From: Phormidesmis sp.
Lineage (GTDB): Bacteria > Cyanobacteriota > Cyanobacteriia > Leptolyngbyales > Leptolyngbyaceae
Assembly: GCA_965248535.1 (NCBI GenBank)
Contig: CBDFJR010000002.1
Location: 1,664,001-1,728,000, forward strand
Length of the DNA: 64,000 nucleotides
Direction: 5' to 3'
Shown piece by piece: positions 4,905 through 63,327 of the stretch. The translations under genes and the position numbers were made by a program. How positions within the stretch are numbered: position 1 is the stretch's first letter; each line of letters begins with the position of its first letter. The notes below the pieces were generated by a model. The model saw nothing but the letters and a program-made list of their open reading frames with translations. It was not told the origin of the DNA and did not search any database.

Positions 4905-5414
4905 ATGGCTTATCAGTGTGATTTAGGAACCGGGCAGCGGCTTTATCTCGAAAACCGAGGCACCCAGACGATCGTTAGGCTAACCAGTGGCAGCGCTCGA
5001 CAGCAGCAGAGTCAGCAGAGCAACTTTGAAACTGGAGAGTGGCAAACCTTGCCCAAAGTCTTTCGCACGGGCACGGGAATCATTTTGCAAATCGAGTCTG
5101 CCCAAAAGCAATCGTTTCTCAGTTTGCAAGCACAACGCATTGGCACCTTAAGCAGTTTGCCTGACATGACGGGTGCAGAGGTGCTGTCGCTCCAGTCTAC
5201 TGAGGCGATCGCGTCGTCGTTTAAGCCGATGGAGCCAATGCAGCCAATGCAGCCAATGCAACCAATGCAGCCGATGCAGATGACAATGGGCACAATGCAC
5301 ATGCAGATGAGCAGTCCCCAGAGCGCCCAGCGCTTTTGTTCTCAGTGTGGAGAATCGGTGAGAGAGAGCGATCGCTTCTGCTCTCACTGCGGCACCCAAT
5401 TATCAACTAGTTAA
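4905..5414 (+). CDS. Zinc-ribbon domain protein with (PMQ)n Met-rich linker
   Basis: C-terminal FCSQCG...RFCSHCG; 9-bp tandem repeats at ~5226-5280. Confidence 0.8.
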   Translation: MAYQCDLGTGQRLYLENRGTQTIVRLTSGSARQQQSQQSNFETGEWQTLPKVFRTGTGIILQIESAQKQSFLSLQAQRIGTLSSLPDMTGAEVLSLQSTEAIASSFKPMEPMQPMQPMQPMQPMQMTMGTMHMQMSSPQSAQRFCSQCGESVRESDRFCSHCGTQLSTS

Positions 5415-5526: not shown

Positions 5527-5600
5527 GCATAACGTTCCCGATCACCGGACACAGACAAACGATAACTTAAATTCGTTCCGGTGCAGCGGGGTTGTTCGGC
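5527..5600 (-). other. attC-like recombination site of the GNAT cassette (74 bp)
   Basis: Minus strand GCCGAAC-aacccc-GCTGCACCGGA...TCCGGTGATC-gggaac-GTTATGC: R'', L''/L' pairing with an extrahelical base, and R'; 21 bp after the GNAT stop. Confidence 0.82.
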
Positions 5601-5621
5601 GGCTGTTGATTGGCTGGAGGT

Positions 5622-6137
5622 TCACTTTGTTTTAGCCTGTAAGAGCAGTTTCATCAGATGCTCATCATAAAATTGACCTTGATTAGAAAAAGCTTCATGT
5701 TCTGTCCCGTAAATGCAGAACCCCAGCGATTTGTAAAGTTGGATGGCAGCGTCTTGGACTGTGACGACCGTGAGATGTATCCTACGCAAGCTAGTATCTC
5801 GTTGAGCACGCACGAGGACTTCGGTTGCCAGTGCTCGTGCGAGACCACGCCGCCGAAAGTCAGGTCTAACATAGAGTCCAGCAATAAAACCACGATGCTT
5901 TTCATTCGCTTCTTCAAAACGTGAAAAGCGGATGGTGCCGACAAGAATTTCAGCCGAAAAAGCTCCAAGAATATATGTATCTTCAGATTCTTGGAGACGT
6001 AAAGCCATTGCTTCGAGTGCGAGCTTTTCTTCCTTTTCGGCTAGGGTGCCGAATGCAGGTGGTTGCTCACGCAATGCAGCCAAACGGAGTACTCGATATT
6101 CTTTTACGTCTGCGGGTGCAAGTGTTCGTATTGTCAT
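5622..6137 (-). CDS. GNAT family N-acetyltransferase (gene cassette)
   Basis: LYVRPDFRRRGLA acetyl-CoA motif, AIQLYKSLGF; bounded by core site GTTCGGC (6189-6183) and attC. Confidence 0.9.
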   Translation of the reverse strand: MTIRTLAPADVKEYRVLRLAALREQPPAFGTLAEKEEKLALEAMALRLQESEDTYILGAFSAEILVGTIRFSRFEEANEKHRGFIAGLYVRPDFRRRGLARALATEVLVRAQRDTSLRRIHLTVVTVQDAAIQLYKSLGFCIYGTEHEAFSNQGQFYDEHLMKLLLQAKTK

Positions 6138-6182
6138 ACCCTGCCCTAAATTATATCAAACATGACAATACTGTGCGTAGCA

Positions 6183-6285
6183 GCCGAACTATTGGATATA
6201 CGGAAACTTTCCGTATATCTCCCTAATTTGAGCAGATACCCCGAAGCTTTCCGTATATAGCCCCTCACTTTTCATCAGATATCTT
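6183..6285 (-). other. attI-like site 1: core GTTCGGC plus repeated palindromic boxes
   Basis: Core exactly complements R'' GCCGAAC of the downstream attC; perfect IR GATATACGGAAA-C-TTTCCGTATATC (6195-6219) and a degenerate copy 40 bp away (6235-6258). Confidence 0.55.
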
Positions 6286-6348
6286 AGAGCAACGATCGCC
6301 CCCTCTCTTCCCAAAACCCGATCGCTTCCTTCTCTTCAAAATTCAGCC

Positions 6349-6377
6349 TTCCAAAAAACAAAAAACTCTTGTACAAT
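6349..6377 (+). promoter_or_regulatory. Putative sigma70-type promoter of unit copy 1
   Basis: TTCCAA-N17-TACAAT, identical spacing in copy 3 (63232-63204). Confidence 0.6.
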
Positions 6378-6384
6378 ACACCGC

Positions 6385-6611
6385 AGTGATGGAGTTGTGC
6401 CCCGAAGTCTGATGTGGCTATCAGACTCCGAGGACTTCCATCCCTAGTTACTACCGATAACTCAGGAGGCGTTCATGATTGTACACCGTCAGCTTTGCTA
6501 TGGGATCTTGAAAGGCTGGAATCAAGATCCTGCATACAGTTTTCCCCTCAACCGAATTTCTGAGCTATCAGAGTTTTTGTCCTCTTTGAATTAATCGAGA
6601 GGACAAAAAAC
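6385..6611 (+). promoter_or_regulatory. Conserved structured RNA leader (four hairpins), copy 1
   Basis: Stems AGTCTGAT/ATCAGACT, AGTTA/TAACT, GGATCTTGA/TCAAGATCC, TTTTTGTCCTCT/AGAGGACAAAAA conserved across three copies; loops of the first two vary. Confidence 0.65.
6475..6594 (+). CDS. Unannotated 39-aa leader ORF (MIVHRQLCYGILKGWNQDPAYSFPLNRISELSEFLSSLN)
   Basis: AGGAGG 5 nt before ATG; same start, length and stop in all three copies. Confidence 0.55.
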   Translation: MIVHRQLCYGILKGWNQDPAYSFPLNRISELSEFLSSLN

Positions 6612-6983
6612 ATGGCAGTTAGGACGATCGTGCCTAGCTCGATTTCGTTCACCATTGAGTTACGTTGCTCAATCGAAAAGCGTTATCGGGTGAGTGTGAC
6701 TTTGGATTTGCAAGAGCGTTATCTCTTTGTGTCGTCTGGCATTGTTTCGGATGTTAGCGACTGCATTGAAGAGTTCGTGTCTCAACTGAGTGAAATTTCA
6801 TCCAATCAACTAGCATTGCTGAAATGGGATGGCACGAGTGATTTGACGACCGAGTATCAGATTGTTCGAGTGTTGCCCGGTTATCAAGTAGAACGATCGC
6901 TTGTGAAGTTCAACATTGTTCTGGGCGATGGTTCATTAATTCAAGTAGAGGAATTGCACAACAAAACGACGATTCAACTGTGA
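6612..6983 (+). CDS. Conserved hypothetical 123-aa protein, copy 1
   Basis: Three intact paralogs (115/123 identical to copy 2 and 107/123 to copy 3 by manual alignment), many synonymous changes, GAGGA RBS. Confidence 0.85.
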   Translation: MAVRTIVPSSISFTIELRCSIEKRYRVSVTLDLQERYLFVSSGIVSDVSDCIEEFVSQLSEISSNQLALLKWDGTSDLTTEYQIVRVLPGYQVERSLVKFNIVLGDGSLIQVEELHNKTTIQL

Positions 6984-7342
6984 TTAGGGTTGGGGAGCCG
7001 TCGATTATCTTTTGGGAATCTGTGCAGCCAGCGATCGGGCAACTTCTCGGTCTAGGTCTAATTCAAACTCTGATATTCCCCATTTTGGCGGCTCTCTAAC
7101 TCTGTAAATCTTTAGGGAATAAAGCGATCGTGTCTCCTTTAGGGCGCTAGATAATTCACCCTCTGTTGCGAAATGCCCGCAAATGGCACAAATTTTTAGG
7201 AATCAGAACACTAAGACTCATTCAGGTTGAGTCTGCTGGTGTTAAATGCCCTTGCCAAGGGTGGCTTGACCGATATCTCAATAATTCGACCCTCAGATGG
7301 ATGGTAGCTTGTGCTCTCAACGTCCATGACCATAACGGTTAG

Positions 7343-8071
7343 TCGCCTCAAGGGGTAGCGTTTCCTCTGTTTTGGCATCTATTAGACAAGCGGGGTAACT
7401 CGAACACGCAAGAGCGCTTTGATCAGTGGGTCGAGTTTTTGTGCGTCTTTGCACCCGAAGACATCGCTTTTTTGACCGCAGACCGAGAGTTTATTGGCAC
7501 CCAATGGTTTGCCTTGCTAATGGCAGAGCCTGTGACTCGCTTTCGCATCCGTATTCGCGAGTCGGAGTTCCTGTTTGATGGGCAGCAATCGCTTAAAACC
7601 ACGATTGTGTTTCAAGATTTGCAGCCTCATCAATCCAAGGTGCTGTCACGCAAACGACGGCTTTGGGGGCATTGGCTTTACTTGGCAGGATTACGACTCG
7701 AAGACGGGTCGTTGCTGGTGGTTGCCACGAACCATGAACCCTCCACTGCCATTGCTGACTATGCTCTGCGTTGGGGCATCGAAACCTTGTTTGGCTGCTT
7801 GAAAACTCGTGGCTTTTGCTTGGAGGCAACCCACCTTAAAGACCAGGAACGGCTCAAGAAGCTCATCGCTCTCTTAACCTTGGCATTTTGCTGGGCGCAT
7901 CGGGTTGGCGAATGGGTGGTGGAACGTCAGCCCATTCAAATCAAAAAGCATGGACGCAACGCCAGGAGCATCTTTCGTACCGGGTTAGATCACCTCCGCC
8001 AGATTTTACTCAACCTCGATACTCGTCAAGCGCAGTTTGTCCAAGTTCTAAAACTTTTGTCCTGTACTTAG
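7343..8071 (+). pseudogene. 5'-truncated IS4-family transposase remnant
   Basis: ADREFIG and YALRWGIETLFGCLK (YREK signature); ends ...LLSCT*; frame opens only after a stop at 7340. Confidence 0.85.
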
Positions 8072-8108
8072 AACCTGGATACGGTCGGCTCCAATGCGAT
8101 CGTTAGCT
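8072..8108 (-). other. Half attC site (R'' and L''), truncated at the IS4 end
   Basis: Minus strand CCAGCTAAC-gatcgcATTGGAGCCGAC; CCAGCTAAC is the exact complement of the cassette start GTTAGCTGG (8941-8933). Confidence 0.65.
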
Positions 8109-8212
8109 GGAGGACGCACTGCTCTCTCCCCAATCCCATCTGACAGGTAACCTCGTGGGCAGTGTCGGAAGGTAGATTGCTGTCTAAGCGTTTTTGAGTA
8201 CCACAAACAACC

Positions 8213-8755
8213 TTATTTTGCGATTTCTAGTTCGACAGATCGGTAGAACTCTTTCACATGTTTAGGCGACTGAAGATGATATACTCGCTTGCTTTCCTTA
8301 GCTTTAGTCACGTATTCTCGATACTTTGGAGTGAGCTTCTTATTGCACAGCCAAACCGTATAATAACTGTTTAGCGTACCCTTCAAGAGCGGACTATTCT
8401 TGGGCCAGTTTTCTGGTGGAACTAGAAAGCCCTTCATGAATCGCTTCGTTACCCACCAATAGTGCTGGAGAACTGGCATATCCAAATAAACTAAGGTGTC
8501 TGCAACCTCCAGTCGTTCCCATACCGTATCCAACGATCCATATCCATCAATTATCCATTGGTCTTGCTGGAGGAGTTGATCATGAGCAGCTTTATAGTCT
8601 TCGTAGGGAACTTCGCTACCGCCAGGTTTATACTTCAGAAGGTCTAAAGCAACCATAGGCAAACCTGTCATTTCTGTTAAACGTTTGCTGAGCGTAGACT
8701 TCCCGCCTCCAGCATTACCAAATACAGCAATTTTATTCACGGTCATCTCCTTCAT
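8213..8755 (-). CDS. P-loop adenylate-kinase-like / topology-modulation (FlaR-like) protein (gene cassette)
   Basis: GNAGGGKST Walker A, WIIDG, ADTLVYLD; lies between two attC-derived sites. Confidence 0.8.
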   Translation of the reverse strand: MKEMTVNKIAVFGNAGGGKSTLSKRLTEMTGLPMVALDLLKYKPGGSEVPYEDYKAAHDQLLQQDQWIIDGYGSLDTVWERLEVADTLVYLDMPVLQHYWWVTKRFMKGFLVPPENWPKNSPLLKGTLNSYYTVWLCNKKLTPKYREYVTKAKESKRVYHLQSPKHVKEFYRSVELEIAK

Positions 8756-8934
8756 GAATGTTGCTTTAAACTACTCTTTAGCAATGAACTTTTACGGTCT
8801 AACTTACGGTACGTTGATAAGCTATTTCAGTGTCTGAAACAGATTCCAAGTGCTGTAACCCTTATGGGTACTTCTGGATCATTGGTGACAATGGCAGGTA
8901 CATACAAGGCTGCGCCTACACGAATGCCTCAGCC

Positions 8935-9017
8935 AGCTAACGTTCCGGTTGAGCGGCAGCAGATTGACCACGACGATAGACGCAAAGACTCTCAACTGCC
9001 CGCTCCAATCGGGTTGT
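8935..9017 (-). other. attC site interrupted by the group II intron (remaining 5 bp at 11016-11020)
   Basis: Removing the intron restores GCATAAC-aacccg-ATTGGAGCGGGCAG...CTGCCGCTCAACC-ggaac-GTTAGCT (88 bp). Confidence 0.8.
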
Positions 9018-11015
9018 GTACGCCCAGCATGGGCGTGAACTAATGGGGTGAAAGTCCCCTGGAGGAGAACCAGCGCCCAAATGATCCCAAAAGATCCGAG
9101 TGGTGATCACTCCTAGCTCAAGGCAAGGGCGTTTCCGTGAGGGAAGGTCTGAAGGAAGCCAGCGGCAAACCGACGAGCCGACGAACAGAAATGTCATAGA
9201 AGGCTGAGACCCCTGGGTGAGGAGCGCACAACACAACGAAACCTCTGGTTCAAGGGGCACAGTAAATGACACGGTTGCGGCGGGACAGTTCACGGTCTTA
9301 TCTGGGGAGGTCTGTGCGGTTGCGGTCTTAAAGATCATGGGAGTCTGACTGAGGTCTCGCGGGAAACGGCGAGGGAGCCACAGAACCCTAACGTCAAAAG
9401 ACAGCGCCCTGAAGAGTAATCTCAAGGGTTCACCGTACAGAAGTCAGCAGAGTCCATAGTAGTTTCCTTGTGAAACGAAGGGACGAACATGAACGAACTA
9501 AGGAGGAGCGATGAACAACTCAGACCCATCGATGAACCCGGATGGGGGAGATGGGGTTTGGCGTTCGGACAGAGAGCCAGCCTTAGACAACCTGATGGCG
9601 CGAATCTTAGAGCGCGACAATGTTCAAGCAGCCTGGAAACGGGTGCAGTCAAACAAGGGTGCGCCCGGTAGCGACGGGATGACCTTAGAAGACTTTCCTG
9701 CCTACGCCCGCGAACATTGGCAAGAGATTCGCCAGTCCTTACTCGATGGCAGCTACCAACCACGTCCTGTACGCCGGGTAGTGATTCCCAAGCCGAGAGG
9801 CAAGGGAGAGCGGAAATTGGGGGTTCCTTGTGTCATAGACCGAGTGATCCAGCGACAAGCCATCTTACAAGTGCTCACGCCAAGGGAAGCGGAAATTGGG
9901 GGTTCCTTGTGTCATAGACCGAGTGATCCAAGCCATCTTTGCTCACGCCAATCTTTGACCCAAGCTTTTCTGAGTCAAGCTATGGCAGCCGACCCCAGCG
10001 TTCGGCTCATGGAGCAATCCAACAGGTGAAAACGATTGTAAAAGCTGGATATCGTGTTGTGGTCGATTTGGATCTGGAGAAATTCTTTGATACCGTCAAC
10101 CATGATGTTTTGATGTCTCGTGTTTCCCGGAAAGTCACTGATAAAGTGCTTTTGGGGTTAATCGGTCGTTACCTGCGAGCCGGAGTGTTGGTCGGGAACA
10201 CCGTTGAACCGACCGACTGGGGAACCCCGCAAGGGTCTCCCCTTTCACCCCTGTTGTCGAATATCCTTTTAGATGATTTAGACAAAGAGCTAGAAGCGCG
10301 AGGACATCGGTTTGTTCGTTACGTGGACGACCTGGTTATTCTGGTCAAAAGCAGACGAGCAGGGCGACGGGTGATGGCGAAAATCAGCCGTTATTTGACC
10401 CAAACCCTCAGGCTCAGAGTCAATCGGGAAAAGAGTCGAGTGGTCAAGATTGAGGATTTGAATTACTTGGGATTTACGTTCCGAGGGATTCGCATTTTCG
10501 TCTGCCAGCAAGCTCTGCAAGACTTCCAGCATCGATTGCGCGGGTTAACCTCGCGCAGTTGGGGAGTCTCAATGTCAGAGCGTTTCGTGCGCTTGAACCG
10601 ATACTTACGGGGGTGGATGAACTACTTCGGCATTTCTCAGCACTACACCCCAATCGCAGAGCTAGATGGTTGGCTCAGGCGACGCATTCGCATGTGTTAC
10701 TGGAAACAGTGGCGCAGACCGAGAACGCGCATTGCTAACTTGCTCAAGTTGGGAACCAGTAAGCGTCATGCGATTTTGACCGGCATTAGTCGCAAAGGCT
10801 TTTGGCGTTTGTCAAAGACTCTCGCAACGCAAACGGGAATGACGAATGAGTGGTTAGAACAACAGGGATTGTTATCGATTCGCCAACTCTGGATGAAAGT
10901 ACAGGGTTACGCTTAAGTGATCAGCGTTGTTTGCGCGTCTTCATGAACCGCCCATTGCGGACCCGCATGATGGGTGGTGTGGGAGGGGAGAGTTAAATGC
11001 TCTCCTCGACCCGAT
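9018..11015 (+). mobile_element. Group IIC (attC-targeting) intron
   Basis: 5' GTACGCCCAGCATGGGCG; domain V ACCGCCCATTGCGGACCCGCATGATGGGTGGT (10947-10978, CGC triad); domain VI ending CCCGAT; inserted at TTGT/TA in the attC bottom strand, opposite to cassette genes. Confidence 0.9.
9511..10916 (+). pseudogene. ltrA: Group II intron reverse transcriptase/maturase, split by an internal ~79-bp duplication
   Basis: NKGAPGSDG, RKLGVP, DLEKFFD, GTPQGSPLSPLL, YVDD, domain X GWMNYF; no endonuclease domain; two ORFs 9511-10029 and 9939-10916. Confidence 0.9.
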
Positions 11016-11291
11016 TATGCGTTGCTCGACACAACCGATCGCGCCCCAACTTCGCCAGACCGCACATCTCAAAAGACGAAGAACTCGGCATTCGCGGACG
11101 GATTTAAATCCTATGCGACCCGTCACCTCCCACTCTCAACGAAGTATCTTTGCTAAAGTCAACACCGATAAGTCGGCGCGATCGTTATAAACCACCTTAA
11201 CTTTCGCACTCACCAACCCGTTCTCAATATCGTTGATACTTAGATTAACGACAACTCTAAAAAACCGTGTTGACAGCTTGTCGGGCTGGCG

Positions 11292-11450
11292 GTCTAACTA
11301 CTATTTCTGCCGTTTGAACTCCTATCAAACAGGATAAATGCCTCTCTCAGAGAAATTATGCTGTATGCAAACCGGATAACTCCCATTTTTTTAGGAATTA
11401 TCCTGAATTCCCACAGGATAACTCTCCGATTTCGGGTAATTATACGGAAT
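11292..11450 (-). other. attI-like site 2: core GTTAGAC plus 42-bp periodic palindromic boxes
   Basis: GTTRRRY core at 11298-11292; TTATNCNG at 11356/11398/11440 and GGATAA at 11332/11374/11416. Confidence 0.5.
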
Positions 11451-11656
11451 GGCGCTCAGACTTCTCGATTCTAGGGGAGCCGTGAGTAAATTGTCTCGTT
11501 CCGATGAATCAGTCATGGCGCTGAGTCGATCGCATCCCTGCCGTTGCTCGACTGGAACATAAATCAGGGAGAAGTTACGATCGCCCCCCTCTCTTCCCAA
11601 AACCCGATCGCTTCCTTCTCTTCAAAATTCAGCATTCCAAAAAACAAAAAACTCTT

Positions 11657-12916
11657 GGGCACCTCGAAAAATTTGCCAAGAGGAGTCTTAACGTGAGACA
11701 AGTGTGAGATCATAGTTATAGAGCAGTGATGGGGCAATTGCAATGACACAGCCTGGATTTTGGGATTGGGAAACGCGCCAAGATAAGCTGAACCAGAAGC
11801 AAGACTTACTGGTGCGACTCAATGAGATTGTCCCCTGGGAAACTTTTCGCCCCTTGCTCGAACCCATTCATGACAAACCGCGCAAGAGTAATGCTGGACG
11901 CAAGCCGATGGATGTGATTGTGATGTTTAAGCTGCTGGTGTTGCAACAGTTGTACAACATTAGTGATGAAGCCTTGGAGTATCAAGTGAGTGACCGCTTA
12001 TCCTTCATGCAGTTTCTCGATTTTGGGTTAGCAGATGAGGTTCCAGATGTAACAACGGTATGGTTGTTCCGTAAGCAGTTAACAGAGCAAGCATTAATTG
12101 AACCATTGTTTGAGCAATTCGATGAGTATTTGATTCAGCAAGGCTACGCAGCTCAAGGAGGACAAATTGTCGATGCTACATTGATTCCCGTTCCCAAGCA
12201 GCACAACAGCAAGGATGAGAATCAACAGATTAAGCAAGGAGAGATTCCCCCATCGTGGCAAGACAACCCGCATCAACGTTCTCAGAAAGATAGCGATGCT
12301 CGATGGACGAAAAAGGGGGGTAAGAGCTACTTCGGCTACAAAGATCACATCAGCATTGATGCCCAACATGGGTTGATTCGTCAGTATGCTGTGACCGATG
12401 CCTCGGTTCATGATTCTCAAGTTTTGGGTCAACTCCTCGATGACGACAATGAGAGCGACAAGATTTGGGCAGATAGTGCTTACCGCGCTGAAGCAATTGA
12501 GGAAACGTTGAAGTTGATGCAGTTCGATAGTCAGATTCATGAGCGGGGATATCGCAACCGCCCGTTAACGGAAGAACAGAAGCAGTCTAATCGCACTAAG
12601 TCCACCACGCGCGTTAAAGTCGAGCATGTGTTTGGGTGTTGGGTGATGCAGATGGGTGGCAAACTGCTGCGTTCGATTGGCATTCAGCGGGCAACGGCAC
12701 AATTGGGATTGAAGAACTTGACCTACAACTTGTTGCGGTACACCTTCTTGGAAACGAAAGCAGTCGGTTAAGAAGTGGGAGCAGGAGTGATCTTGAATGG
12801 AGCCTGGATGAATCAATATTGCTCAGGTGAATGAGGGAGAAGCGATAGGCTTACATAGCTCTCTTCAGTCTCATTTGAGATCCTGATTCGCTAAAAATCA
12901 ATTAATCGAGGTGCCC
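11657..12916 (+). mobile_element. Complete IS5-family insertion sequence (1260 bp)
   Basis: Terminal IRs GGGCACCTCGAAAAATT / GGGCACCTCGATTAATT (15/17); 4-bp target duplication TCTT confirmed by the empty site in copies 1 and 3. Confidence 0.95.
11743..12771 (+). CDS. IS5-family transposase
   Basis: GRKP, DRLSF..F, PD.TT.W.FR, IVDATLI, ADSAY, R.KVEHVFG. Confidence 0.95.
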   Translation: MTQPGFWDWETRQDKLNQKQDLLVRLNEIVPWETFRPLLEPIHDKPRKSNAGRKPMDVIVMFKLLVLQQLYNISDEALEYQVSDRLSFMQFLDFGLADEVPDVTTVWLFRKQLTEQALIEPLFEQFDEYLIQQGYAAQGGQIVDATLIPVPKQHNSKDENQQIKQGEIPPSWQDNPHQRSQKDSDARWTKKGGKSYFGYKDHISIDAQHGLIRQYAVTDASVHDSQVLGQLLDDDNESDKIWADSAYRAEAIEETLKLMQFDSQIHERGYRNRPLTEEQKQSNRTKSTTRVKVEHVFGCWVMQMGGKLLRSIGIQRATAQLGLKNLTYNLLRYTFLETKAVG

Positions 12917-13026
12917 TCTTGTACAATACACCGCAGTGATGGAGTTGTGCCCCGAAGTCTGATGTACCAGATCAGAACTCCGAGGACTTCCATCCCTAGT
13001 TAGCGTTCATAACTCAGGAGGCGTTC

Positions 13027-13146
13027 ATGATTGTACACCGTCGGCTTTGCTATGGGATCTTGAAAGGCTGGAATCAAGATCCTGCATACAGGTTTTACCC
13101 CAACCCAATGTCTGAGAGATCCGTGTTTTTGTCCTCTTTGAATTAA
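13027..13146 (+). CDS. 39-aa leader ORF, copy 2 (MIVHRRLCYGILKGWNQDPAYRFYPNPMSERSVFLSSLN)
   Basis: AGGAGG RBS; same frame and length as the other copies. Confidence 0.5.
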   Translation: MIVHRRLCYGILKGWNQDPAYRFYPNPMSERSVFLSSLN

Positions 13147-13163
13147 TCGAGAGGACAAAAACT

Positions 13164-13535
13164 ATGGCAGTTAGGACGATCGTTCCTAGCTCGATTTCGT
13201 TCACCATTGAGTTGCGTTGCTCAATCGAAAAGCGTTATCGGGTGAGTGTGGTTTTAGATTTACAAGAGCGTTATCTCTTCATGCCCTCTGGCATTGTCTC
13301 GGATGTTAGCGACAGCATTGAAGAGTTTGTGTCTCAACTGAGTGAAATCTCGTCTAATCAACTAGCATTTCTAAAATGGGATGGCACGAGTGATTTGACA
13401 ACCGAGTATCAGATTGTTCGAGTGTTGCCCGGTTATCAAGTAGAACGATCGCTTGTGAAGTTCAACATTGTTCTGGGGAGTGGTTCATTAATTCAAGTAG
13501 AGGAGGTGCCCAACAAAACCACCATCCAACTCTAG
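13164..13535 (+). CDS. Conserved hypothetical 123-aa protein, copy 2
   Basis: Paralog of 6612-6983 and 62597-62968. Confidence 0.85.
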   Translation: MAVRTIVPSSISFTIELRCSIEKRYRVSVVLDLQERYLFMPSGIVSDVSDSIEEFVSQLSEISSNQLAFLKWDGTSDLTTEYQIVRVLPGYQVERSLVKFNIVLGSGSLIQVEEVPNKTTIQL

Positions 13536-13649
13536 AACAGTTGGGGTTAGGGAGTCGATTGTTCTTTAATGGATCGTGAAACAACCTGTTTGATCAACGC
13601 ACTTGCACCCAAAGCGGGTTCATCACTGGTTCCTTTATGGTCGCCCGGC

Positions 13650-13952
13650 TCCCTAACGGAAGACACGATCGTCAACCATACACACAACAAACTACGGCAT
13701 CGGGCACCTGGAATGCAGGTTTCACCCTTCAGTAAAAGATTTGCGGCTGCCGAAACTGCGGCGACCCAAGAGCGAGAGCGGCAAATTTTGCTGCCCTACC
13801 CAAGAGGATTGGGGAATCTGGTCAATTGGCCGTGCTGCCTCTATGGGACAGGACTGTCGCTGCGGGACTTGCAAGAAGCGTTATATTTTCTGATTAGGTC
13901 ATGTTTTGTCGCGCAGTGCCCTGAATCAAGTCACTCTTGCCGTTCAAAATGA
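13650..13952 (+). pseudogene. Degenerate transposase fragment, probably IS256 family
   Basis: LYGTGLSLRDLQEAL resembles the IS256 YxxGxSxR helix; surrounding sequence appears frameshifted. Confidence 0.45.
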
Positions 13953-20361: not shown

Positions 20362-20679
20362 CTATGGCTTGGTAGGAGTCTCTTTCTTCATGGCATCGCC
20401 ATCCTTTTTCATTGCGTCGCCTTTCATCGCATCGCCATCTTTTTTCATTGCGTCGCCTTTCATCGCATCACCATCTTTTTTCATGGCATCGCCCTTCATC
20501 GCATCACCTTTCATCGCATCACCTTTCATGGCACCACTAGCTGGAGATGCACTAGCCGCCGGAACACTAGAGGCTGGGCTAGGAGCCGCTTGTTGTTTGA
20601 CTTCAGGAGTGCTTGAACAAGCAGCTAGACTTGCCATCAACGCAAAACTTGCGACTGAACCGATCATTTTCCAATTCAT
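20362..20679 (-). CDS. Methionine-rich repeat lipoprotein (MXKDX-like)
   Basis: Lipobox LAAC; repeated MKGDA/MKKDGDA; tandem DNA repeats at 20385-20530. Confidence 0.8.
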   Translation of the reverse strand: MNWKMIGSVASFALMASLAACSSTPEVKQQAAPSPASSVPAASASPASGAMKGDAMKGDAMKGDAMKKDGDAMKGDAMKKDGDAMKGDAMKKDGDAMKKETPTKP

Positions 20680-20798
20680 GTTTGTTGCCATCCTGTTCAA
20701 AAACTGTGAATGTTTCTCAATGCTCACAGTATGGCGATCGAGTCTGAGGCGGCACTGAACTTAATCTTGAAGGTTGCTGAATTTTTCTACTAAATGTT

Positions 20799-54480: not shown

Positions 54481-55269
54481 TTAAGTTAGGCGATCGGGGT
54501 CTACTCCCAGTCTTCGCAACTCAGCCGCTAGCAACTCGGCTCGCTGGTGCTCTTGGTCTGCTCGCTGGCGCTCTTGGTCGGCTCGCTGCTGTTCTTGGTC
54601 GGCTCGCTGGCGCTCTTGGTCTGCCTGTTCTGCACTCCAAAGCAGCAAATTGCCAGACGCATCCCACCAGCGCAGCCAGTTTGCGGTTTGTCGGAGACGC
54701 TCCCCCGACCAAATTCCTAAAAATAGATTTAACTCAGGAATCCACACCCGCTTCTGCTCGTTGGCTTCTTGCATGATGTAGCGCTTATCCCGCAGGCACC
54801 GCACTTCTAAACTGGGTTCGTAAGGGTCGTAGGTGACATAGGTGGGCACTTGCAAAACTTGCTCATAGAAATAAAGCTTGCCATAGGGAGGAGTCGATCG
54901 CACTGACAGCTCGCCTCCCTCTTCTTGAGAGAGAAACTCCATCGCGATCGCAACTGGGGCACCGTCTAGATTAGGCGTGTAGCTGCGTCGAATCGTGCCC
55001 TCTGCTATGGGATGCACTTGGGGCACATAAAACCAGTCTGGGGCTTTGACCACCGTTTTTTTGTTGACCGTGGCCACCAACCCAAAGTTTGAGCCAATCA
55101 GCATTTCTGGCTGAATACACTCATTTGCTCCTAGGGCATCGGTTAGGGCGGCGGCGAGGGGCGGCTGTTGAATATTTTCCACGGGGTCATCTGTTAACGC
55201 AAAATCAACGGGCAGCGCTTCCCAGGTGACGATCGGGTCTTTTTTGGCAGATGGAGTTTGCAAAACCAT
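54481..55269 (-). CDS. Uma2-family endonuclease-like protein with heptad-repeat tail
   Basis: PDW, EFLS, K..FYE, WLRWWD; 21-bp tandem repeats (QERQRAD) at ~54537-54625. Confidence 0.85.
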   Translation of the reverse strand: MVLQTPSAKKDPIVTWEALPVDFALTDDPVENIQQPPLAAALTDALGANECIQPEMLIGSNFGLVATVNKKTVVKAPDWFYVPQVHPIAEGTIRRSYTPNLDGAPVAIAMEFLSQEEGGELSVRSTPPYGKLYFYEQVLQVPTYVTYDPYEPSLEVRCLRDKRYIMQEANEQKRVWIPELNLFLGIWSGERLRQTANWLRWWDASGNLLLWSAEQADQERQRADQEQQRADQERQRADQEHQRAELLAAELRRLGVDPDRLT

Positions 55270-60751: not shown

Positions 60752-61513
60752 ATGAATCATTTAACGATTAGCGCTAGGCGCAACTCTAAAGGAGCCGCAG
60801 CTTGCCAAAAACAGACAGCAACTAGACTAATATCAGGCATCTTGTTGGCAATGTCGCTGATGCCAATTGCAGCATTAGCAGACGATGATAAAGCGCCTCC
60901 TAGTGGCAGATCTGCTGGAGGTAGGGGCTGTGGAACCACCACACAAATTGCTCAATCTAATGTGCCTAGTTTGATCTTACTTTCTCCTCAAGAATCTTCT
61001 AAACAAGCGGTTTCGACTCGCCCCACTTTTGCCTGGTTTGTGCGCGATGCTGCCCCGGTATTAATGGAATTTAGACTTTATGCACAGGACGCAAACAACC
61101 GCTATCAATTGGTTAAAGAGGTTAAAGACGATCAGTTCAAAACATCTCCTGGCATTATGGTGTTGTCACTGGCTCAAACGACTCCTGAGCTTGCGATCGG
61201 GCGATATCGCTGGCAGGTGGTGTTGATCTGCGATCGCAGCCATCCCTCTGGCAATCTCTTTGCTGAATCTGAGCTAGAAGTGGTTCCATTGCCTGCTGAT
61301 TTGAAGACTCGGTTAGAAAAGACCCACGATCGCGCCTCTCAAGCATCGCTCTATGCTCAAGCAGATTTCTGGTATGACGCGCTGGGAACTGCGATCGGTT
61401 CATCTAATACTGGGCTGAAAGATCCACAATTGTCTCTTCTCAACAAAATGATGCTGAACAACACGGAGCAGCAGTTATTACAAAATAGTGCGATTCATCC
61501 GATACAACGGTAG
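60752..61513 (+). CDS. DUF928 family protein
   Basis: GGRGC, RPTFAWFV, YRWQV, WYDAL. Confidence 0.8.
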   Translation: MNHLTISARRNSKGAAACQKQTATRLISGILLAMSLMPIAALADDDKAPPSGRSAGGRGCGTTTQIAQSNVPSLILLSPQESSKQAVSTRPTFAWFVRDAAPVLMEFRLYAQDANNRYQLVKEVKDDQFKTSPGIMVLSLAQTTPELAIGRYRWQVVLICDRSHPSGNLFAESELEVVPLPADLKTRLEKTHDRASQASLYAQADFWYDALGTAIGSSNTGLKDPQLSLLNKMMLNNTEQQLLQNSAIHPIQR

Positions 61514-61617: not shown

Positions 61618-61962
61618 CTACCCCGCTGGTTCTTCGGGTAATAGTGGTGCGATTATTGCCAATAATCTAGGAATATTATCTTGAGTTACGTCCCAGACAA
61701 CATCAAAGTCAATTCGATCGTATTGATGGATGATGATGTCTCGCATTCCGGCGATATCTTTCCAGGGAATTTCAGGATGTTGGTTTCGATAGTGACTAGA
61801 TAATCGTTTTGTTGCCTCTCCCATAATTTCAATCTGATATAAGATTGCAGAATGGCGCATCACGTCTGTTTCAAGCTCAGATCGGTTTAGACCTTGAGTA
61901 AAAGTCAGAACACGCTGCCCCGCAAGAAAAATGTCCATTACAGATGCCTTATCTCTGGACAT
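61618..61962 (-). CDS. HEPN/DUF86 toxin (HepT-like)
   Basis: GEA.K, IPW..IAGMRDIIIHQY (RX4HXY). Confidence 0.9.
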   Translation of the reverse strand: MSRDKASVMDIFLAGQRVLTFTQGLNRSELETDVMRHSAILYQIEIMGEATKRLSSHYRNQHPEIPWKDIAGMRDIIIHQYDRIDFDVVWDVTQDNIPRLLAIIAPLLPEEPAG

Positions 61963-62305
61963 AGATTAACCTCGCCGTCCCTAGAATTTCTTTTCGGCGA
62001 ATCCAGTTTTCGCTCTGCCCGATCGATTTTTTTGTGAGCAAGTCTACGCTTCGCATAAACAACGCTGCCAATTCTCGCTTCATTCTGACCAGTTCTAGTA
62101 ATCCACAGACTGCATCAGGATCAACTTGCACCATGACATCGATATCGCTATCGGGGCGAAAATCATCCCGCAGCACAGAGCCAAATAGATAGAATTCCTG
62201 AACGCTCCAACGCTGACAGAATTGAGCAATCTCTGCTTGGGGCAGTTCGATCGCAATTGAGTCAGACAATAACTGAAATCCTGCAACTTCAACTTTTTTC
62301 ATCAC
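61949..62305 (-). CDS. Minimal nucleotidyltransferase antitoxin (MntA-like)
   Basis: FGSVLRDDFRPDSDID (GSX10DXD); overlaps the HEPN gene. Confidence 0.9.
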   Translation of the reverse strand: MMKKVEVAGFQLLSDSIAIELPQAEIAQFCQRWSVQEFYLFGSVLRDDFRPDSDIDVMVQVDPDAVCGLLELVRMKRELAALFMRSVDLLTKKSIGQSENWIRRKEILGTARLIYVQR

Positions 62306-62511: not shown

Positions 62512-62596
62512 TGTTATATCTATTGCAACAATGAATACATATAGTTAGGGAGCCTTTCCCAAACGGGAATACTGATGACTCCCTAACCCCAACTTC

Positions 62597-62968
62597 CTAG
62601 AGTTGAATCGTAGTTTTGTTGTGCAACTCCTCCACTTGAATTAAGGAACCCTCACCCAGAACAATGTTGAACTTCATTAAAGAGCGTTCAATTTGATAAC
62701 CGGGCAACACTCGAACAACTTGGTACTCTGTGGTCAAATCACTGGTGCCATCCCATTTGAGAAAGGCCAGTTGATTAGACGCAATCTCACTCAGTTCTGA
62801 GACGAACTCTTCAATGCGATCGCCAACATTCGGAAGAATGCCAGACAGTACAAAAAGATAACGCTCTTGCAAATCTAATCTCACACTGACCCGATAACGT
62901 TTCTCCGTTGAGCATCGCAACTCAACGGTGAACGAAATCGAGCTAGGCACGATCGTCCTAACTGCCAT
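62597..62968 (-). CDS. Conserved hypothetical 123-aa protein, copy 3
   Basis: Paralog of 6612-6983. Confidence 0.85.
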   Translation of the reverse strand: MAVRTIVPSSISFTVELRCSTEKRYRVSVRLDLQERYLFVLSGILPNVGDRIEEFVSELSEIASNQLAFLKWDGTSDLTTEYQVVRVLPGYQIERSLMKFNIVLGEGSLIQVEELHNKTTIQL

Positions 62969-62985
62969 GGTTTTTGTCCTCTCGG

Positions 62986-63105
62986 TTAATTAAAAGAGGA
63001 CAAAAACACGGATCTCTCAGACATTGGGTTGGGGGGAAATCTGTATGCAGGATCTTGATTCCAGCCTTTCAAGATCCCATAGCAAAGCCGACGGTGTACA
63101 ATCAT
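62986..63105 (-). CDS. 39-aa leader ORF, copy 3 (MIVHRRLCYGILKGWNQDPAYRFPPNPMSERSVFLSSFN)
   Basis: AGGAGG RBS; conserved frame and stop. Confidence 0.5.
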   Translation of the reverse strand: MIVHRRLCYGILKGWNQDPAYRFPPNPMSERSVFLSSFN

Positions 63106-63327
63106 GAACGCCTCCTGAGTTACTTGCGCTAACTAGGGATGGAAGTCCTCGGAGTCTGATCTGGTAAATCAGGCTTCGGGGCATAACTCCATCACTGCGG
63201 TGTATTGTACAAGAGTTTTTTGTTTTTTGGAAGGCTGAGTTTTTTGGCAGGAGCGATCGTGGTTTGGTTCCGTCTGCTCTAAGCAAGAAGTTACATCTTA
63301 ATAAATCCACAATCCTAAGAAGGTTAG

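Follow-up and report, generated by a model that had tools for sequence, protein, structure and literature searches.

How does the attachment site of an integron come to lie beside a gene that encodes no integrase? The question is raised by a window of 64 kb (C2:1664001-1728000) from the 5.0-Mb genome of a cyanobacterium, Phormidesmis sp. (label G000; HIP1 octamer density about 1/kb), in which two cassette arrays each abut an attI platform and, beyond it, a divergent unit that encodes a 123-amino-acid (123-aa) protein. A first-pass annotation, made from the letters of the window, had proposed that these are satellite attI platforms served in trans and tied to the 123-aa module, with the unit standing in the place of intI. 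We compared the window with the rest of this genome and with seven other genomes of the genus (eight in all; loci carry labels such as L014). The explanation that we put first, with about an even chance of being right as a whole, is that both platforms have lost intI by deletion and that the unit behind them is an antisense-controlled toxin-antitoxin lock.

The attI arrays of the genus were sorted into classes A to G, each with its own integrase type. Platform 1 of the window (6183..6290, minus strand) belongs to class A and consists of a core at 6189 and two 40-bp repeat units; it is 83-86% identical to the four-unit site that precedes the intact intI at C2:1,132.5k. Platform 2 (11292..11500, minus strand), assigned by homology to class B, consists of a core at 11298 and an array with a 42-bp period, and is 78% identical to the site before the intact intI of L014 and 82-94% identical to eight other copies in this genome. 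Homology of both arrays to the sites before intact intI genes starts at the core, the first cassette being joined at G/TT. The two minus-strand GTT cores and the periodic arrays described in the first-pass annotation were thus recovered where it had placed them, with periods of 40 bp (class A) and 42 bp (class B). The strongest array period was 39-42 bp in all classes A to G. The arrays repeat a unit of about 40-42 bp, equal to four helical turns, in tandem; a site has between one and four such units, each carrying an inverted heptamer pair (e.g. 6195-6263 and 11298-11460 in the window). The attI1 site has two accessory repeats, and the platform arrays here are longer. A scan for a cassette promoter (Pc) over 6100-7150 gave one weak minus-strand match at 6159, which is at chance level.

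An intI gene adjoining attI, as in a complete integron, is absent at both platforms. Searches with the integron-integrase model TIGR02249 and with Pfam PF00589 gave no match in the window, in agreement with the earlier reading, and the search for intI elsewhere that it had called for returned two intact genes, at C2:161k and C2:1,131k, both above the TIGR02249 cut-off. What remains behind platform 2 is a pseudogene stub (11504..11575, plus strand) of the first 24 codons of a class B intI, identified by tblastn through 62.5% identity to residues 1-24 of the L014 IntI (E 1.2e-5). The same stub was found by tblastn in six of the eight class B satellites that have a unit, so the deletion occurred once before these spread, or was itself spread by conversion. 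Stubs with differing breakpoints lie between platform and unit at 11504-11575 in the window and at L012, L026, L030, L033 and L055, and at L068 by eye. The window stub ends beside a HIP1-core site, and GATCGC occurs within 70 nt upstream of the unit promoter in 45 of 70 loci, against a genome-wide rate of one per 209 bp; because of this enrichment, HIP1-core sites are likely the break points of the intI deletion. Judged by this homology and these scars, the window platforms very probably derive from class A and class B elements by deletion of intI, with HIP1-core sites as frequent break points.

The unit normally takes a fixed position behind intI. One unit starts at the stop codon of the intI at C2:1,131k. 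Eight intI genes score above the TIGR02249 cut-off in the eight genomes of the genus, and a unit lies directly downstream of seven of them, the exception being the second intI of this genome; the intI of L014 is likewise directly followed by a unit. These integrases are 54-89% identical to one another, and each of the classes A to F was found in the order platform, intI, unit. The idea that the unit stands in intI's place beside attI therefore gives way to another: in six classes the unit has its regular place directly downstream of intI, and it adjoins attI only because intI was deleted from between them. The broader claim, that these are satellite attI platforms which lack a local integrase and are linked physically to the 123-aa module, was borne out, an array being present upstream in 12 of the 17 units of this genome and in 27 of 40 units in relatives. 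In our proposal the ancestral element of the genus would have read cassettes, attI, intI and unit, and would have existed in at least six classes that differ in their integrase and in their attI array.

The 17 unit copies of this genome, 16 of them with the whole open reading frame (ORF), are 85-95% identical to copy 1. Twelve have a platform, one of these with intI, and five have none. Units were also found in all seven other genomes of the genus (4-21 matches each), in one of 82 other genomes of the family, and in none of 400 genomes sampled across the phylum. Among the relatives' units, 40 loci were examined out of 83 matches, with long contigs favoured: a platform was present in 27 (with a full intI in four), only a piece of intI in one, and neither in 12. 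The tie between unit and platform is not obligatory, which weakens the proposed coupling, as seven of the 19 platforms in this genome lack a unit and five of its 17 units lack a platform. The only copy outside the genus, L014 (G089:C451), belongs to a complete class B integron; the contig has 5 kb, the genome is 85% complete, and the copy reflects either transfer or mis-binning. In G060 and G062 we observed many 3' fragments of the 123-aa gene that start near residues 80 or 96; the residue-96 starts coincide with a HIP1-core site, and the fragments often lie a few hundred bases behind a whole copy (e.g. L016, +901 to +1023).

If the platforms lack intI, can they still take part in recombination? 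One 172-bp cassette takes first place, with 100% identity, in three arrays: those of the two complete integrons (classes A and G) and that of the class A satellite at C5:798k. The platform of this satellite matches its parent platform at only 88%. Two class B satellites have a 542-bp cassette in common, at 97.8% identity. The identical first cassette suggests integrase action in trans and across classes, and we consider it probable from these comparisons that satellite platforms can still trade cassettes by means of the two intact intI genes elsewhere. Two points count against this: the genome has no class B intI, so that platform 2 would need cross-class recognition, and homologous recombination is another route by which the common cassettes could have travelled. 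The 172-bp cassette has no ORF and a long, weak attC, and stands first at C2:161065-161240, C2:1132767-1132944 and C5:797639-797810, and also at L007, L012 and L031; it may be a promoter cassette or a plug.

The unit itself reads, from 5' to 3', promoter, two hairpins, ribosome-binding site (RBS), 39-codon ORF, RBS hairpin, 123-aa gene and terminator-like stem. In unit 1, on the plus strand, the predicted promoter (6349..6377), with -35 and -10 hexamers and a 17-bp spacer, is kept in 16 of the 17 copies of this genome. The leader ORF (6475..6594) has 39 codons in all 17, and its stop codon lies in the loop of a hairpin (6574..6609) that masks the RBS of the 123-aa gene (6612..6983; copy 1). 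This stop is placed 7 nt ahead of the Shine-Dalgarno sequence in 73 of 79 loci, and the six core pairs of the hairpin are Watson-Crick in all 35 distinct variants. The leader peptide is not under selection (omega 0.8-1.1), while codons 1-20 are near-frozen as DNA (synonymous divergence, dS, 0.01). Behind the gene lies a terminator-like stem-loop (6989..7100), with a long loop in this copy, whose arms covary across copies and for which the sense strand gives the better fold in 44 of 58 cases. Unit 2 (12916..13657, plus strand) has the same parts, namely a leader with its own loop pair, a 39-codon ORF, the 123-aa gene (13164-13535) and the 3' stem-loop (13546-13657).

A predicted antisense RNA (6385..6470, minus strand) runs opposite the leader, with two hairpins, hypervariable loops at 6414-6419 and 6450-6458, and its 5' end over the leader RBS. 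A predicted antisense -10 hexamer (6478..6483, minus strand) lies within leader codons 2-3 and is present at every locus at which the leader was found. In every one of the 68 distinct leaders, the two-hairpin region has its more stable fold on the antisense strand, with a mean of -33.7 versus -23.2 kcal/mol, whereas the strand difference of shuffled sequences was -1.3 +/- 3.6 kcal/mol. In stem 1, which could be parsed in 50 of the 68 leaders, all 147 non-Watson-Crick cells are G-U on the antisense strand and C-A on the mRNA. The stems are 96-98% identical among copies and the loops 47% and 54%. Loop divergence was 0.58, compared with 0.25 at fourfold-degenerate sites of the ORF, and it was the higher of the two in 63 of 66 pairs of equal loop length. 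The loop pairs of this genome are distinct in all 17 copies, at least 3 mismatches apart. Pairing of loop 1 with loop 2 within one RNA was considered and dropped, since the score of 2.90 was not above that of shuffled pairs (2.82 +/- 0.08). In contigs from RNA runs (four of the ten listed runs), leader, ORF and platform were covered alike; these data are strandless and may be DNA.

These features make it quite likely that the unit is a self-contained switch, in which an RBS hairpin coupled to the leader is combined with a blocking cis antisense RNA. A constitutive mRNA would hide the RBS of the 123-aa gene in the hairpin, which would open only upon translation of the 39-codon leader; the antisense RNA, with its two hairpins, would cover the leader start and block leader translation. 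Since each copy has its own loop pair, no antisense RNA should efficiently silence the mRNA of another copy, and loss of a copy would release that copy's protein. Several observations speak against such a switch. A consensus promoter scanner reported neither the sense nor the antisense promoter; the latter is without a clear -35 hexamer, and no U-tract directly follows the last hairpin. The RBS hairpin shows no overall strand preference (-14.7 versus -14.2), and C-A cells occur in its outer stem. The strand-asymmetry counts come from related sequences, and of the four G-U positions only two vary.

The arrangement recalls several known systems. In hok/mok/sok, as predicted for the unit, translation of the downstream gene is coupled to a leader ORF whose RBS is covered by an antisense RNA (PMC12390103); the Hok/Mok-type traits of RBS masking and leader coupling are present in the unit as architecture only, and it differs in having a soluble 123-aa protein, not a short membrane peptide, and no likeness to Rfam families. 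In CopA/tap/repA and FinP/traJ (PMC5415839), as predicted for the unit, a two-hairpin cis antisense RNA, leader-coupled translation and specificity-setting loops occur together, whereas the unit has no recognisable Rep or transfer gene and no copy was found on plasmids. Paralogous chromosomal copies kept separate by short variable recognition regions are known from ibs-sib (PMC2943612) and zor-orz (PMC3919570); in ibs-sib two recognition domains give cognate specificity among five copies (PMC2943612). The unit differs from these in having 17 copies, not two to five, in variable regions that are hairpin loops upstream of a leader ORF, and in its tie to integrons. The type I modules beside CRISPR arrays of Clostridioides difficile (PMC5961336) resemble it in that a module under antisense control, which for the unit is predicted, accompanies each of several dispersed acquisition arrays, although there the toxins are small membrane proteins and the transcripts converge, while here the arrays are of cassettes.

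What, then, does the switch control? The 123-aa protein is soluble and acidic (pI 4.8), without a membrane helix (highest 19-residue hydropathy 1.06). It is under purifying selection, with a ratio of nonsynonymous to synonymous divergence (dN/dS) of 0.13 among 16 copies, and its ORF is intact in 55 of 57 genome copies. AlphaFold gave an alpha/beta model with a pLDDT confidence score of 86, a second model used in the fold search also scored 86, and the long beta-hairpin suggests that the protein may form an assembly. No significant match was found in Pfam, NCBIfam, PHROG, PADLOC or PDB sequences. The fold search with the two models gave best Z scores of 4.7 and 4.5 among 48,161 chains, and Foldseek against PDB and BFVD gave no match at E 0.001 or better; this outcome is no proof of a new fold, nor of a differing one. 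For the homologue P0052, no usable match came from the ESM Atlas. Distant homologues (P0124, P0136-P0138) are 44-50% identical; two other candidates, P0123 (a 1877-aa repeat protein) and P0134, look like chance matches and were dropped.

We slightly favour the reading that the switch serves as a type I toxin-antitoxin lock with one key per locus. Such a lock explains why the unit survives intact after intI is lost and why copies accumulate, and we rank it first because 55 of 57 copies keep the ORF although a helper protein could act in trans. A type I system has a labile antitoxin, a stable mRNA and cognate-only repression, and the loops specific to each copy are consistent with these traits. 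Against it stands the protein itself, since 123 residues, an acidic composition and no membrane helix are unlike typical type I toxins; these are typically short hydrophobic peptides with a membrane helix, with SymE and RalR as exceptions (PMC12390103). A wider picture, which we offer as tentative and rather doubtful, is a distributed integron in which one or two integrases serve at least 12 platforms of several classes, each locked by an RNA-keyed addiction module with a toxin of new fold, the module also providing a homology arm for platform swaps and chromosome rearrangement.

The strongest competitor keeps the same anatomy and the same antisense control, with the protein as an entry factor made by zygotic induction. 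A burst of synthesis in a cell without the matching antisense RNA would aid establishment, the protein being e.g. an anti-repressor, an anti-defence protein or an integrase helper, and variable loops would let a newcomer escape silencing by residents, as with plasmid incompatibility groups or phage immunity types. This predicts the same loop diversification and strand asymmetry, and it fits both a soluble, non-membrane protein and a fixed place behind six intI classes. There are precedents: an antisense block of a Rep-coupled leader is known in IncFII plasmids, and FinP loops set specificity (PMC5415839). However, a helper acting in trans fails to explain an intact ORF in 55 of 57 copies and a dN/dS of 0.13, no copy was found in viral contigs or plasmid records, and a look at the element ends revealed neither target duplications nor a fixed crossover. 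We regard an entry factor as possible but on the unlikely side.

Movement of the unit brings in the next alternative. The unit ORFs group by genome and not by platform class, with distances of 0.11-0.12 within and 0.16 between genomes, and 16 of the 17 ORFs of this genome, together with a single foreign row, make up one clade irrespective of platform class. Thus the protein is homogenised among copies while the loops are kept apart. The first-pass annotation had remarked that the two arrays differ although the units are nearly identical, and this holds: the proteins of units 1 and 2 are 93.5% identical and their platforms are of different classes. The difference is explained by there being two integron classes, whereas the units are homogenised within the genome whatever the class. 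One right flank that carries class B in this genome is joined to F or A in relatives, and a second, likewise with B in this genome, bears D in a metagenome contig. At the first site, the unit groups with the copies of its own genome, not with its positional counterparts. The swap of classes at the same flank, together with this grouping, points to crossovers inside units. In the mechanism that we propose, units would recombine among themselves, homogenising the protein and swapping platform classes at fixed unit positions.

The same findings could be read as the history of a selfish repeat: a unit of no service to the integron settled behind one intI long ago, its 700-bp homology carried platforms along by ectopic recombination and transformation, and the link to attI is a relic. 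Homogenised units and a common right flank with different platform classes in different genomes agree with this, as does the lack of a platform at 5 of 17 own and 12 of 40 examined relative units. Flanks were contiguous across 2 of 25 elements by script, and across 4 of 25 when two loci at which a cassette had been mistaken for flank are counted, compared with 32 of 64 other junctions (p 0.004). Yet the contrast is not significant against background gaps of at least 1 kb (4/10, p 0.19), the unit follows integrases as little as 54% identical, and purifying selection and copy-specific loops still need a cause, which leads back to addiction or immunity. A selfish repeat is an improbable account in our estimate. 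In five relatives the sequences that flank the window locus do not adjoin each other, and an empty site for this locus was thus not found; two empty sites in this genome (versus L008 and L038) are too diverged for exact ends. Excision by IntI at an AAC closing the 3' hairpin was considered and rejected, as this triplet is present in no more than 19 of the 29 hairpins scored and changes along with its pairing arm. Stacks, in which a new array lies right behind a unit, were seen in the window and at L018, L020 and L024; a stack could turn a platform into a composite cassette.

A leader that works as a cis sensor, i.e. a riboswitch or attenuator on the mRNA with unconstrained loops and no antisense RNA, would fit the leader ORF and RBS hairpin, which work in cis, and the sense leader does fold better than shuffles (z -3.2). 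We think it distinctly unlikely, since the stem mismatches pair on the antisense strand only, divergence of the loops is over twice that of neutral sites in the ORF, and the leader matches no Rfam family at gathering score. Lastly, that the 123-aa protein replaces intI as the partner of attI, as a new recombinase or targeting factor, would suit the 12 of 17 units behind an attI array, but it is hardly credible given units behind intact intI, stubs that mark intI deletions, and an acidic protein with no tyrosine-recombinase match.

How do the platforms relate to integrase-less attC arrays in general? The window holds a CALIN-type arrangement (a cluster of attC sites without an integrase), with two attC sites and a half site, the nearest intact intI more than 500 kb away and only the 24-codon stub on site. 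As in the description of CALINs (PMC4889954), the attC arrays are short and without a near intI, an intact intI lies elsewhere in the replicon, and insertion sequences (IS) are near. That source lists intI loss as one route of CALIN origin and counts intI pseudogenes near 15 of 279 CALINs. The platforms here differ from what it describes in keeping a full attI with a long periodic array, and often an intI stub, and in forming about a dozen sites of several classes with one fixed downstream module in common. The sedentary ilvD integron of Xanthomonas is likewise genus-wide, with frequent intI inactivation and CALINs said to be mobilised in trans (10.1101/2025.06.18.660453), whereas it has one platform at one locus, and here at least six intI-attI classes occur over changing loci. 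In the literature covered, mostly open access and without supplements, we found no account of the 123-aa unit or of integrons in this genus, nor of attI platforms that belong to several classes, are dispersed, and are tied to a single module under antisense control whose loops differ from copy to copy.

The origin and continued activity of integrase-less arrays are given as an open question in the defining paper (PMC4889954). With parent element, deletion scars and common cassettes all visible in one genus, the question of CALIN origin becomes directly testable. The 68 loop pairs on one RNA scaffold amount to a natural library in which cognate specificity is easy to test, and which could yield many orthogonal antisense switches for cyanobacteria. 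Should the protein prove toxic, it would represent a soluble type I toxin whose fold has no match, in a phylum for which a single candidate type I pair had been described as of 2025 (PMC12390103). It would then also provide a means, located outside the cassette array, by which integron platforms are stabilised.

The cassettes of the window were examined with an attC covariance model trained on 11 attC sites lying elsewhere in the same genome, which is not IntegronFinder's model. Over the 64 kb it returned two sites only, 3.4 kb apart, both on the minus strand, as the first-pass annotation had it for both arrays. The attC of cassette 1, the last site of array 1 (5527..5600), scored 59.6 bits (E 5.8e-13). 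The site of cassette 3, split by an intron into 8935..9017 and a final 5 bp at 11016-11020, was found at 8935-9023 with 54.9 bits (E 9.3e-12). The content of array 1 is a single cassette encoding a GNAT acetyltransferase of 171 aa (5622..6137, minus strand; PF00583, E 2.5e-18), a gene that matched no NCBIfam family above its cut-off. Array 2 holds an ORF-less cassette of about 280 bp and a P-loop kinase-like cassette. The first of these, cassette 3 (11016..11298, minus strand), has no intact ORF and is 83-88% identical to cassettes in two other arrays. The gene of cassette 2 (8213..8755, minus strand) resembles a FlaR-like 'DNA topology modulation protein' (NF005994, E 2.1e-23), at 83 bits and thus under the cut-off of 215. 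The surviving right half of its attC (8083..8108, minus strand) resembles whole sites but is too short for the covariance model; its R'' (8102-8108), read by eye, complements R' at 8935-8941, and R' and R'' heptamers are complementary in cassettes 1 and 2. The left half was removed by IS remnants (7124..8071, plus strand), which include a fragment of a DDE transposase (7439-8071; PF01609) and pieces that recur elsewhere in the genome. Solitary attC sites with no platform detected near them, possibly cassettes placed at secondary sites, lie at C2:852.9k, 1,340.9k, 1,521.0k, 1,835.6k, 1,883.2k and 1,958.7k and at C5:1,631.2k and 2,161.8k.

The intron in the attC of cassette 3 is a group II intron of 1998 bp (9018..11015, plus strand), with Rfam (RF02001, RF01998) and Pfam (PF00078, PF08388) matches that are generic for group II. 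Group IIC-attC introns target the TTGT/T junction, and the window copy likewise lies at that junction, in the bottom strand of attC and in the orientation opposite to that of the cassettes. It differs from them in a reverse transcriptase that is frameshifted by an internal duplication (repeat D10), and other copies in the genome are 700-bp and ORF-less. We found eight of these ORF-less introns (about 700 bp) in attC-type sites, seven of them 96-100% identical and one about 84%, at C2:156.9k, 609.3k, 1,133.9k and 1,136.9k and at C5:45.6k, 793.6k, 933.0k and 1,939.4k; the frameshifted window copy is the sole one with a reverse transcriptase found by DNA search. CALIN-type arrays and attC-targeting introns, the kind that this intron fits, are both already known. 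A further insertion is an IS5-like element (11658..12915, plus strand) with a 6-bp target duplication, which lies between the -35 and -10 hexamers of unit 2 and splits its promoter; a 98% identical copy is present at C2:2,106k.

Unit 3 (62544..63300, minus strand; 123-aa gene 62597-62968) had been reported to lack both a cassette and a core site. No attC was found there, as reported, but about 60 bp upstream, common to one other platform-less copy, keep an attI-core-like heptamer near 63290. Directly downstream of this unit lies an MNT-HepT toxin-antitoxin pair (61618-62305, minus strand), bordered by a 76-bp direct repeat at 61327 and 62383. Behind the unit at C5:1399005, locus L128 (C5:1396245-1398500) contains decayed cassettes and a unit-less class D platform, and a gene pair that, by eye, we take to be of the BrnT/BrnA type. 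The platform-less unit at C5:1266.5k lies just downstream of a tRNA-Ala-like sequence, again by eye. Finally, three ORFs of the window carry short tandem repeats (4905-5414, 20362-20758 and 54481-55269), in the form of a Met-Gln-Pro repeat ahead of a zinc ribbon and of 15/36-bp and 21-bp repeat tracts.

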